A DNA stretch of 64,000 nucleotides from Octopus sinensis. Lineage: Eukaryota. Position numbers and translations under genes: made by a program. Below the pieces are notes generated by a model. It saw nothing but the letters and a program-made list of their open reading frames with translations. It ran no database searches and was not told the DNA's origin. The DNA lies in assembly GCF_006345805.1 (NCBI RefSeq), contig NC_043006.1, positions 21,948,001 to 22,012,000 on the forward strand, read 5' to 3'. This document shows positions 18,008 to 63,515 of this stretch, piece after piece (the first letter of the stretch is position 1; each line of letters begins with the position of its first letter).

Positions 18008-18097
18008 GCCCGCATAGCTCAGTCGGTAGAGCATCAGACTTTTATGTTAACCTTAGAGGCAATCTGAGGGTCGCGGGTTCGAGTCCCTCTGCGGGCG
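18008..18097 (+). tRNA. tRNA-Lys-TTT: tRNA-Lys(UUU) with 17-nt intron (TGTTAACCTTAGAGGCA)
   Basis: Intact exons, divergent shorter intron, long T run downstream. Confidence 0.94.
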
Positions 18098-18277
18098 CAT
18101 GATTTTTTTTTTTTTCATTTTCTTGAATTAGTTTGTTTATTTGTTAGTTTTAGTATCGTCTCGAGTTTTACACCGAGTAGATAGATATGTTTTTCTGTTT
18201 TTTAAATTTTTTCTTAAAGTGTACGTGCATTGTCTCTGTTTCTGAAACGAGAGACTGTATTTGTTGCGTAACTTCGG

Positions 18278-18330
18278 TATAGGTACCAGAAGTAATCTGA
18301 GGGTCGCGGGTTCAAGTCCCTCTGTGGGCG
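18278..18330 (+). pseudogene. tRNA-Lys 3' half (part of intron + 3' exon)
   Basis: AGAAGTAATCTGAGGGTCGCGGGTTCAAGTCCCTCTGTGGGCG with no 5' exon upstream. Confidence 0.85.
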
Positions 18331-18979
18331 TAAGGTATTACGATAATGTACCGGATACATTTCAAGAAAGTGTTTTTTTTATATATATGGGGGAGGGGTT
18401 AGGGTTAGGGTTAGGGGTGGGAGAAAAGGGTTTCTGTCATCGTCAGAAATGTAAACAAGCCACTTACGGTACATAAGGGTGTTGCTGAAGAAATCGACCC
18501 CAGTGTTAATTATTTTGGTATGTCTACATAAGTGTTACTCCGCCGACTTTGTTTCCTCATAACTTTCAGTAAAACAGATATTTTTCAATGAAATTTTCTA
18601 CAAATACGCTTTACATTGTTTACATTCCGATTATATCGGAATTTGAGGTTAAAAAAAAAAACACGAAAAAAAAAACTTTTTCCGAGGGTTGGGGGTGAAG
18701 AGTTACGGAAAATTCACATGAGTCAACTTAAGTTTTTCGATTATAAACACACGCATCGCCCGGTCTGAGATTCGAATCCGCGATTCTCGACCGCGAGTCC
18801 GCTGCTGTAGCCACTAGGCCATGTGCCTCCACAGAAACATGAATCAGCTTTGTTTTCTTACATCTTTCAGAAAAAAAAGGTATTTCTTTTTATGAAAATT
18901 TATACGAATACCTTTCAGAGTGTAAATTACGATTATATTCAAAAGAAAATTGCTGAACTCAGAAACATACATTGTTTGT

Positions 18980-19272
18980 TCCTTCTCAAGCCATGCCTGG
19001 TTCATAAGGGCCGGTTTCCCGGTTTCCTTGGTGTATAGCTTCCCCACCTGGGCGGGACGCCGGTCCATCGCAGGTGAGCTGCATGATGCAGGAGGAAAGA
19101 GTGAGAGAAAGATGTAGCGAAAGAGTCTGCAGAAGTTCGCAATTATCTTCTGCCAGAGCCGCGTGGAGTTTAAGTTTTTCGCTCATAAACACACACATCG
19201 CCCGGTCTGAGATTCGAACCCGCGATTCTCGACCGCGAGTCCGCTGCTCTAGCCAATAGGCTATGTGCCTCC
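18980..19272 (-). mobile_element. tRNA-derived SINE (family A-like head); extra head at 18727-18831
   Basis: Head GGAGGCACATAGCCTATTGGCTAGAGCAGCGGACTCGCGGTCG..GGTTCGAATC. Confidence 0.75.
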
Positions 19273-19911
19273 AGAGAAACATACATTCCGGTATACATAG
19301 CAGTATTTCGTCTGCCGTTACGTAGACGTTAGCACGCCGGGCGAAATGCTTAGCAGTATTTCGTCTGCCGTTACGTTCTGAGTTCAAATTCCGTCGAGGT
19401 CGACTTTGCCTTTCATCCTTTCGGGATCGATTAAATAAGTACCAGTTACGCACTGGAGTCGATCTAATCGATTTAATACCTATGTCTGTCCTTGTTTGTC
19501 CCCTCCATGTTTAGCCCCTTGTGGGTAATAAAAAATAAGTATACATAACAGTTTCTTTCGAAATTACAAGTTCCATTTTGTAAGCGTATTTTGCGAAGGA
19601 AAAAAAACTAGATCCGATATTTATGTGTCAGTATGTACGAGTAGGAGACCACCATTTATTTTTTTATCACATTAAATTCCGATATCATCATAATGAATAT
19701 ACTGTGAAAAGTATTAGTAGAAAATTTCATTAAAAATTACCCATTTTTCTGAACGTTATGAGGAAACAAAGTCGACCCGTGTGAATTTTCCGAAACTCCT
19801 CATCCCAGCCCAGGGAAAAGATTTTTCACTATAAGTTTCGTTACAATCAGAATCTACAACATCTGAGCGTATTTGTATGAAATTTCATTATAAAATATCA
19901 ATTTTCCTTGT

Positions 19912-20242
19912 AGGCGGCTTGAGTGGCTGTGTGGTATGTAGCTTGCTTACCAACCGCATGGTTACGGGGTCACCTTGGGCAAGTGTCTTCTACTATTGCC
20001 TCGGGCCGACCAAACTGAAAGAAGCCCGTCGTATACGTATATATATGTTTGTGTGTCTGTTGTGTTTGCCCCCCCCCCCCACAACAACGCTTGACAACCG
20101 ATGCTGGTATGTTTACGTCCCCGTAACTTGGCGGTTCGGCAAAAGCGACCGATAGAATAAGTACTAGGCTTACAAAGAATAAGTCTTGGGAGTCGATTTG
20201 CTCCAGCATGGCCACAGTCACATGACTGAAACAAGTAAAAGA
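19912..20242 (+). mobile_element. SINE family B with internal deletions
   Basis: Match to the family. Confidence 0.8.
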
Positions 20243-20769
20243 GTTATGAGGCAACAAAGTCACACTTTGTGTAGTCATGCCATTATTTTTTTTCAAGTCT
20301 GCTACTTTTTCTGTCGGTCTTTCATGCCGAACCGCTACGTTACGAGAGCATAAAGAAACCAATACTGGTTGTCAAGCGGTGGCGGGAGCACAAACACACA
20401 AACACGCACATAAACACACACGTGCACATACGCGCGCGCACGCATTATTTCATCTGGTTGTTAGCCCTGGTGTTTACCCTGTTCAGTTCATCCCTCAGTC
20501 AAACCCTCTCTGTAGCTGGTCTTCTCTTGGAAGAGCCCTGCTTCTCGCATGGGCAACTGTATGTTGGCTGTTCAAGAGTAGGAACCAAAAGAAACCTTTT
20601 TTGTATATGCTCCACAAGGAAAAACAAGGAACATTGTTTACAACGAGGTGTTATAATCTCAACAGCCAGGAGGTATATACATGATCCCCTTTTTTTTTAA
20701 CAAACTTCACGTACTTTCATGTATTTATATTAATATACATCTGTGTGTATGTGTGTGTGTGTGTATGTA

Positions 20770-20842
20770 TCCATATATATATAACAGAAAAGTCTAACTC
20801 TTCAATTGAATGTAACCGGGCAACGCCGGGTATCTCTGCTAG
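20770..20842 (+). mobile_element. 73-bp mini-Helitron
   Basis: A|TCCATATATATA...CCGGGCAACGCCGGG-TATCTCTG-CTAG|T. Confidence 0.6.
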
Positions 20843-20862
20843 TATATATTTTCTTTCTTTTT

Positions 20863-61604: not shown

Positions 61605-61687
61605 CGCCACAGAGGGACTTGAACCCGCGACCCTCAGATCACTTAATGCTTAAAAGTCTGATGCTCTACCGACTGAGCTATGCGGGC
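61605..61687 (-). tRNA. tRNA-Lys-TTT: tRNA-Lys(UUU) with 11-nt intron (AGCATTAAGTG), damaged acceptor stem
   Basis: 5' exon perfect; 3' end TGTGGCG is one base short of TGCGGGCG (pseudogene or assembly error). Confidence 0.65.
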
Positions 61688-61886
61688 GGACACGGTTATC
61701 TATCATCATATAGTTTATAAATCAAGTTTGATAACCTAGTTTTATGTTGCCGTGTGAGAAAAATTGATTAAATTTTCTGTCGTAACTAGTCTTCATTTAT
61801 AAATATACATGTATGCTGGATCGTCGTTAGCCCCTACACGCAATTTTTTTCTCTTCTTGTTTCTCTCCTTGTTTCTTTTCTTTGTA

Positions 61887-61924
61887 TCTTTCTGTCGAAG
61901 AGCGTAGGCTCGAAACATAAAAGA
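61887..61924 (+). ncRNA. Hammerhead-like motif with CUGUNGA core variant
   Basis: TCTTT-CTGTCGA-A-GAGC-GTAG-GCTC-GAAA-CAT-A-AAAGA. Confidence 0.45.
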
Positions 61925-62277
61925 CTTGTTTTATTTCTATTCCTGAGCGCCATACTAATACATTGTTTGTACTCCACCTGCCTTCGTCTTTTGTTTATTT
62001 TCGTAAACCTTCCCGTTATATATATATGTGTGTGTGTGTGTGTGTGTGTGTGTGTGTGTGTGTGTGTGTGTGTGTGTGTGTGTCTGTCTGTCTGTCTGTC
62101 TGTATCAGTATGTGTGTATCACTAAAACTCGAGAATTACTTAACGGATTTCATTCAAATTTTACACATGCCTTACTTAGAGTCCATGCAAGTGTCATGGT
62201 CAAAAAAGATTATTTATGTATTTATGTATGTATGTATGTAAGTATATATGTATGTATGTATGTGTGTATGTGTGTGT

Positions 62278-62580
62278 GTGGAGATGCAATGGCCCAGTGG
62301 TTAGGGCAGCGGACTCGCGGTTGTAGGATCGTGGTTTCGATTCCCAGACAGGGCGTTGTGAGTGTTTATTGAGCGAAAACACCTAAAGCTCCACACGGCT
62401 CCGGCAGGGGGTGGTGGCGATCTCTACTGTACTCTTTCGCCACAACTTTCTCTCAGTCTTTCTTCTGTTGGCCTGCTCGCTTAGCCAGCAGGGTGGCGTC
62501 ATTTGAAGGCTAAAACAATGCGAAGCGCATTGTGACCAGCGATGTGTAGCAGCATCTGATAGCCTGATCGGTCATGGTGA
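62278..62580 (+). mobile_element. tRNA-derived SINE (family A)
   Basis: Colinear with 4084-4367. Confidence 0.8.
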
Positions 62581-62597
62581 TATATATATATATATAT

Positions 62598-63028
62598 ATT
62601 TTACTCTTTTACTTGTTTCAGTCATTTGACTGCGGTCAAGCTGGAGCACCGCCTTTAGTCGAGCAAATCGACCCCGGGACTTATTCTTTGTAAGCCCAGT
62701 ACTTATTCTATTGGTCTCTTTTGCCGAACCGCTAAGTTACGGGGAAGTAACACACCAGCATCGGTTGTCAAGCAATGCTAGGGGGGGGGCAACACAGACA
62801 CACAACACACACACACACATACATACATATATATATATATATATATATATATATATATATATATATATATACGACGGGCTTCTTTCAGTTTCCGTCTACC
62901 AAATCCACTCACAAGGCATAGATCGGCCCGGGGCTATAGCAGAAGACACTTGCCCAAGATGCCACGCAGTGGGACTGAACCCGGAACCATGTGGCTGGTT
63001 AACAGCTACTTACCACACAGCCACTCAT
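62598..63028 (-). mobile_element. SINE family B
   Basis: Near full-length match. Confidence 0.8.
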
Positions 63029-63422
63029 TTATATGTGTGATATATACATATAAAAATACAAACTGGGACAAGAAGGCAAAATATTTAGGTGACGATACAA
63101 AAAACACTATATGTATACGGATATGCCTTCCTATATACATGCAAAAACGTGTGCCTACAAGCATATGTTTGCACGCGCTCGTGTTTGTGCGCGCGCACTC
63201 GTATGTGTGTGTGTTCGTATGTTTTTTGAATGAAACGATTTGTTCTACAAAAAAACCCTTCAAGATGGTGCTCCAGCATGTCCGCAGTCAAATGACTGAA
63301 ACAAATAAAACAGTAAATTTATAAAAGATATACAGATTTCTTTTTTTTTTTTTTTAGTATACAAACACAATATAAAACATCTGATGAAACTATTCTTGTA
63401 AATTGTATAAAAGGAGAACCTG

Positions 63423-63515
63423 CGCCCGCACTGCAACTCGAGCCCGCGACCCTCAGATTTCTTACTGAACTGCTTCAAGAAAAGTCTGACGTTCTACTGA
63501 CTGAGTTACGCGGGT
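63423..63515 (-). pseudogene. Degenerate tRNA-Lys(UUU) with 20-nt intron
   Basis: Colinear with consensus but many substitutions in acceptor, D and T arms and A37C. Confidence 0.85.

Follow-up and report, generated by a model that had tools for sequence, protein, structure and literature searches.

The introns of eukaryotic transfer RNA (tRNA) genes are generally described as forming an anticodon-intron (A-I) pair, which joins nucleotide 32 to the antepenultimate base of the intron, and in vertebrates as well as in fission yeast intron sequences have been described to vary within one gene family (PMC10275265). The pair is a C-G pair in all 16 fly tRNA introns, and in cells of fly and human splicing is abolished when the bases are unpaired, and lowered when the helix is over-strengthened (PMC6614914). 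In the structure of human TSEN a C32-G pair starts the helix beside a bulge of 3 nucleotides (nt), and the enzyme needs any pair at that position but no particular sequence (bioRxiv 2022.09.03.506465); general background is available in PMC11408192, PMC10485636 and PMC13247085. The present work deals with a cluster of intron-containing tRNA-Lys(UUU) genes in a stretch of 64,000 nt from Octopus sinensis (NCBI RefSeq assembly GCF_006345805.1, contig NC_043006.1, positions 21,948,001 to 22,012,000 of the forward strand), which is referred to below as the window and whose first letter is position 1.

A preliminary description of this DNA took the kept A-I pair as a signature of active splicing. 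From the letters of the window it appears very probable that the window contains a cluster of 19 copies built by local duplication, the intact ones likely being transcribed by Pol III (RNA polymerase III) and spliced by TSEN and RTCB by means of a pair between C32 and the G placed third from the intron end, G(-3).

Introns, exons and promoters of the tRNA-Lys(UUU) genes

The gene copies were located by an ungapped mismatch scan of the whole window with the two exons, which gave 21 5' exons, 20 3' exons and one chance match. The exon matches assemble into 19 complete tRNA-Lys(UUU) genes, together with two isolated 5' halves and a single 3' half, and no spliced exon junction is present anywhere in the window. 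The cluster spans 15398-63515 on both strands; the span of 18008-63515 given originally holds 16 of the 19 genes and misses the three that precede 18008, the true start being 15398. Copies are named here by their start coordinate.

Each complete gene consists of a 5' exon of 37 nt, an intron of 11-20 nt and a 3' exon of 36 nt. Since these exons flank every intron, the insertion point is the canonical 37/38 position, which is also the sole placement that fits all 19 introns, those ending in G or T fixing the boundary. Fourteen distinct intron sequences are found, and the seven types already recognised in the preliminary description return with the same counts (12+1+2+1+1+1+1). Its central observation is confirmed too: G at -3 occurs in 19/19 introns, preceded by a purine at -4 in 19/19 (15 A, 4 G) and by A at -5 in 19/19, and C32-U33-U34, with which they can pair, is unchanged in every copy. 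When C32 was slid against intron positions -1 to -8, the register starting at -3 paired 32-34 in all 19 copies and the next best in three. The 3' end of the intron is thus complementary to C32-U33-U34, and in the commonest types the complementarity extends to A37; the predicted pairing leaves a 3-nt bulge at the 3' splice site, made of the last two intron bases and A38. A longer motif from -3 to -8, defined post hoc, has 28 of its 30 pairs formed in five types (35 of 42 when all seven are counted), with columns only modestly slower than the others (9 changes in 6 columns against 34 in 13); it is noted here, not claimed.

On the exon side, the near invariance described at first holds for the ten copies that are identical apart from position 57, and does not hold for 63423, with 12 changes, nor for 61604, whose acceptor stem is damaged. 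Among the five divergent types there are 4 changes in 73 exon columns against 19 in 18 intron columns (binomial p 1.6e-10). The comparison of exon, intron and flank proposed in the preliminary description, run on the window copies, gave mean distances of 0.022 for exons, 0.075 for the intron and 0.20 for the downstream flank in seven close paralogues. Apart from a shared mismatch at pair 50-64, stems are fully paired in 15/19 copies, with further breaks in 36592, 59491, 61604 and 63423. A and B boxes are intact in 17/19, and a run of at least four T begins no more than 11 nt past the gene end in 19/19.

Upstream of the genes there is a conserved element at -46 to -20, with a mean identity of 0.57 against 0.43 +/- 0.011 in 1000 shuffles (nine chosen copies). 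The far flanks of these nine copies are at or near random identity, and the spacer adjoining the element is at shuffle level. The element stands at an equal distance in most copies, across unrelated flanks and different introns (it is also seen at 17962-17988, + strand); the pattern derived from the alignment matches 14/19 copies, and the element is absent from 15398 and 15850. Animal tRNA upstream regions are reported to have no common TATA signature but to share anticodon-specific motifs (PMC3082873), so that the octopus element has a precedent in kind. Closer to the gene, G is found at -4 in 16/19 copies and may be the transcription start site, and the upstream base -1, C in 18/19, is a potential pairing partner of discriminator G73 in the precursor.

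Most copies therefore look like Pol III genes, real ones as the preliminary description had proposed, with 63423 and 61604 as broken exceptions. Exon stasis, Pol III boxes, terminators and the upstream box indicate this better than the A-I motif does.

Two positions of the tRNA body deserve mention. Pair 50-64 is a C.U mismatch in 17/19 copies, C.A in the pseudogene 63423 and U.C in 54370, where both bases have changed and the pyrimidine mismatch is retained; two random exon changes would land on one given pair with P 0.0004 and on any pair with P 0.008. The T stem has a role in elongation-factor binding, and the mismatch may be a selected feature that tunes it. Position 57 in the 3' exon is G in ten copies and A in nine, a variation that cuts across the flank relationships; it lies in a CpG, and recurrent mutation and conversion are both possible.

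The genes, their remnants and one example of the upstream element are as follows.

15398..15489, + strand: tRNA-Lys(UUU) gene, major-type intron 15435-15453
15850..15941, - strand: tRNA-Lys(UUU) gene, major-type intron 15886-15904
16887..16978, + strand: tRNA-Lys(UUU) gene, major-type intron 16924-16942; C68T (wobble pair)
18008..18097, + strand: tRNA-Lys(UUU) gene, divergent 17-nt intron 18045-18061; exons equal to the majority
18295..18330, + strand: orphan 3' exon; the intron 3' end before it likewise has G(-3)
21609..21700, - strand: tRNA-Lys(UUU) gene, major-type intron 21645-21663
21720..21746, - strand: conserved upstream element of gene 21609 (-46 to -20, TATA-like core near -34)
25329..25420, + strand: tRNA-Lys(UUU) gene, major-type intron 25366-25384
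27317..27353, - strand: decayed 5' half with 8 mismatches, without 3' exon
27481..27572, + strand: tRNA-Lys(UUU) gene, major-type intron 27518-27536
33903..33994, + strand: tRNA-Lys(UUU) gene, major-type intron 33940-33958; A26G
36592..36683, + strand: tRNA-Lys(UUU) gene, likely impaired, major-type intron 36629-36647; A37G, G52T (affecting the B box and the T stem)
40896..40987, + strand: tRNA-Lys(UUU) gene, major-type intron 40933-40951
42697..42733, - strand: 5' half with an almost complete major-type intron after it, the 3' exon having been lost
43074..43165, + strand: tRNA-Lys(UUU) gene, major-type intron 43111-43129
46661..46752, + strand: tRNA-Lys(UUU) gene, major-type intron 46698-46716; C63T (wobble pair)
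49494..49585, + strand: tRNA-Lys(UUU) gene, divergent 19-nt intron 49531-49549; exons as in most copies
50555..50646, + strand: tRNA-Lys(UUU) gene, sister of 49494, intron 50592-50610; C6T, A31G, A38T
51496..51587, + strand: tRNA-Lys(UUU) gene, major-type intron 51533-51551
54370..54461, - strand: tRNA-Lys(UUU) gene, divergent intron 54406-54424; 50-64 mismatch swapped from C.U to U.C
59491..59581, - strand: tRNA-Lys(UUU) gene, divergent 18-nt intron 59527-59544; G1A (A1.C72 mismatch)
61605..61687, - strand: tRNA-Lys(UUU) copy, likely non-functional (61604 in the text), 11-nt intron 61640-61650; 3' acceptor strand one base short
63423..63515, - strand: pseudogene with 12 exon changes, A/B boxes and D/T stems broken; 20-nt intron 63459-63478 with G(-3)

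Of the 19 copies, 18 are recognised by Rfam RF00005, and the Rfam scan gives no other family in the window; the pseudogene 63423 is missed by both Rfam and ARAGORN. Run without intron search, ARAGORN types several copies as Stop, Ile or unknown, which is a warning for annotation, and a low-stringency run on the window returned noise only. An assembly gap of 100 N at 32975-33074 lies inside the cluster, so further copies may be missing.

Probable selection, and shared ancestry, at the intron 3' end

Introns of all types align to one another, that is, they are homologous. A naive calculation of the chance of finding G(-3) in 7/7 types (P 6.5e-5) was rejected, since introns related by descent are not independent. 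Trees were consequently used, built from the remaining intron columns (17 short columns, noisy). On them, the probability that G is kept at -3 in all 19 copies is 0.009-0.03 under uniform rates. For the triple G,R,R (R, purine) at -3 to -5, fixed a priori, it is 0.0004-0.003 under uniform rates and 0.006-0.05 under gamma rates, and 0.004-0.09 when the broken copies 63423 and 61604 are dropped. Among the 19 well-filled intron columns only -3 and -5 are invariant, and -4 toggles solely between A and G, both able to pair with U33; that both invariant columns fall within the three named positions has a chance of 3/171 by simple arithmetic.

Several observations weigh against the explanation favoured here. 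G(-3) alone is not significant under gamma rates (P 0.05-0.35), and the summed changes at -3 to -5 are not below those of random column triples (p 0.15-0.18), because -4 often flips between A and G. No covariation can be seen (0 two-sided changes across copies), a comparison that is uninformative because the exon side never changes. The decayed 63423 keeps G,R,R, and G(-3) is also present in 61604 and in the orphan 3' half; chance alone would preserve G(-3) in 84% of copies decayed by 16%, and G,R,R in 70%. As regards folding, the A-I pair has a probability of no more than 0.17 in five divergent copies (49494, 54370, 59491, 61604, 63423) even with the mature stems enforced, and free folds give 0.5 or more in only 8/19 copies.

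With the same stems enforced, the probability is at least 0.95 in 13/19 copies and 0.68 in one. In 300 shuffles of the intron per type, the fraction reaching the observed A-I value was 0.003, 0.000, 0.030, 0.087, 0.070, 0.147 and 0.227. Weak predicted pairing does not refute splicing because energy models ignore the protein. Major-type introns (e.g. 21645-21663, - strand) can also pair with both strands of the anticodon stem, and in several copies this competing structure has the lowest energy of the free folds.

The explanation that survives best beside selection is that G(-3) and its neighbours were kept by shared ancestry alone in slow columns; the genes may then be active, with the motif giving no evidence of it. 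The alignment of the introns to one another, the gamma-rate result for G(-3) and its persistence in the pseudogene 63423 are in its favour, and so are the 8 intron changes among the 12 major-type copies, which would spare the three positions by chance about 25% of the time. It is nevertheless considered unlikely, given the joint retention of G,R,R in the 19 copies (P 0.0004-0.05) and the fact that the invariant columns had been named beforehand by TSEN biochemistry, in which unpairing abolishes splicing (PMC6614914). The same experiments bear out the need for a pair between pyrimidine 32 and the antepenultimate base, cited as established in the preliminary description.

Conversion tracts that extend into the intron from the 3' exon could also keep the intron's 3' end uniform without any selection on the pair, and the six identical introns found amid near-random flanks do call for either homogenisation or strong constraint. 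However, tract bleed predicts the fewest changes next to the exon, and the opposite is seen: the tree places 4 changes at -1, 2 at -2 and none at -3 and -5. Conversion spilling from the 3' exon thus fails to explain G(-3), and this account is judged quite improbable. That the copies are a tRNA-derived short interspersed element (SINE) or a dead repeat family is very improbable: SINE-like repeats abound in the window, which also holds half-genes and pseudogenes, but every copy has an intron, which a retroposed mature tRNA would lack, no spliced junction occurs, flanks were duplicated together with the gene, exon conservation far exceeds that of introns and flanks, and copies end at terminators in place of tails (no search for target-site duplications was made).

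The 3' end of the intron is therefore probably under selection, with statistical support that is real but moderate once shared ancestry is counted, and to this extent the long-term selection on splicing proposed at first is upheld. The motif is no per-copy sign of active splicing, because the broken copies 63423 and 61604 keep it. The sequence of events favoured here would be the following. The intact copies would be transcribed by Pol III, as their A box, B box, T4+ terminator and TATA-like element suggest, and in the precursor the intron 3' end is predicted to pair with the anticodon loop, leaving the 3-nt bulge at the 3' splice site. TSEN would then take its measure from the tRNA body to cleave the two splice sites, and the exons would be ligated by RTCB, steps established in human, fly and yeast. 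Purifying selection would hold the exons and, less strongly, intron positions -3 to -5, while the remaining intron drifts and gene conversion homogenises the major type; broken copies would retain G(-3) merely by inheritance.

Evolution of the cluster and other content of the window

Homologous flanks between copies range from tens of bases up to 1.3 kb, and since the flanks are shared together with the gene, the copies arose by DNA duplication and not by retroposition. Six copies share an identical intron, with a downstream flank identity of 44-59% in 14 of the 15 pairs and 75% in one, the random mean being 49%. The major intron sequence is not required, because the intact genes 18008 and 49494 carry quite different introns; gene conversion would be a likelier cause of the uniform major intron than selection on that type. 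The intron appears older than the divergence of the cluster flanks, so that the age attributed to it in the preliminary description holds relative to those flanks and no further.

The window as a whole is AT-rich animal DNA with many microsatellites and SINE-like repeats. A multi-finger C2H2 zinc-finger open reading frame (ORF) at 5502-6596 (- strand; 352 amino acids from the first Met) has generic animal matches only and is absent from the exact-match collection. A Helitron helicase fragment lies at 23164-24081 (+ strand; best match Octopus vulgaris at 361 bits and 54% identity, the next one at 305 bits), and reverse-transcriptase-like and GIY-YIG-like retroelement fragments, judged by eye, at 13136-13915 (- strand) and 28310-28681 (+ strand). 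A recurrent SINE-like repeat adjoins (TA)n and (CA)n tracts, e.g. at 9318-9734, 20999-21457, 52313-52690 and 62630-63324; no family was assigned to it by any tool used, and a search with a SINE-derived ORF gave no candidates.

Comparison with known tRNA introns

In human, the families listed as intron-bearing are Tyr(GUA), Ile(UAU), Arg(UCU) and Leu(CAA) (PMC10275265), and those in Aedes Ile-TAT as well as Leu-CAA and Tyr-GTA (PMC11705514). The octopus introns share position and pathway with these animal families, and Lys(UUU) is not among the families named in those sources. Word searches of the open-access literature found no report of an intron in an animal tRNA-Lys(UUU), which is weak evidence of absence, and passages of planarian, Platynereis and oyster papers (PMC7962491, PMC12257675, PMC9679248) contain nothing on intron families. 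An intron in an animal tRNA-Lys(UUU) may therefore be the unusual or new point of this locus, and genome annotations may already list these genes. The same family also presents the kept pyrimidine mismatch at 50-64 and a conserved upstream TATA-like element, unusual for animal tRNA genes.

In Saccharomyces cerevisiae, on the other hand, tRNA-Lys(UUU) is one of ten intron-bearing families, and a strain without this intron grows close to wild type (PMC6582322). The likeness lies in the isoacceptor; fungi use Trl1 and produce linear introns, whereas animals use RTCB (PMC10275265, PMC4536317). Gain and loss of introns in single isoacceptors, with equalisation by conversion, have been discussed for yeasts (PMC4090602). 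That a tRNA-Lys(UUU) intron was newly gained in a lineage of cephalopods or molluscs, and then spread through the family by duplication and gene conversion, is a tentative proposal, somewhat more doubtful than probable. If such introns are restricted to one animal lineage they would offer a handle on how tRNA introns are gained and spread, and a lineage-specific gain would be a rare, datable event in animals. The C32-A37 helix would in that case hide U34 and A37 from modifying enzymes until splicing, and lysine AAA decoding would depend on TSEN.

Excised introns that circularise, the tRNA intronic circular RNAs (tricRNAs), are documented in Drosophila and C. elegans, and three fly introns shorter than 21 nt were undetected as such (PMC4536317). 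The same animal pathway would apply in octopus, where the introns, all of 11-20 nt, fall in the size range that went undetected in the fly; formation of tricRNAs from them is plausible by analogy with fly, worm and human-cell data.

With canonical TSEN introns the octopus genes share the 37/38 position, short length, the potential C32-antepenultimate G pair, complementarity to the anticodon loop and the predicted 3-nt bulge (PMC10275265), and no mechanistic difference is seen in the cluster. The A-I pair, a defining feature of eukaryotic tRNA introns, teaches nothing new in itself and is here a further example of the textbook rule. The major octopus type can form a fully paired helix of 6 base pairs, mostly A-U and G-U, and over-strengthened helices in fly reporters were spliced less (PMC6614914). 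The cluster constitutes a natural allelic series, with seven intron types in one exon frame, for testing how far TSEN tolerates differences in helix strength.

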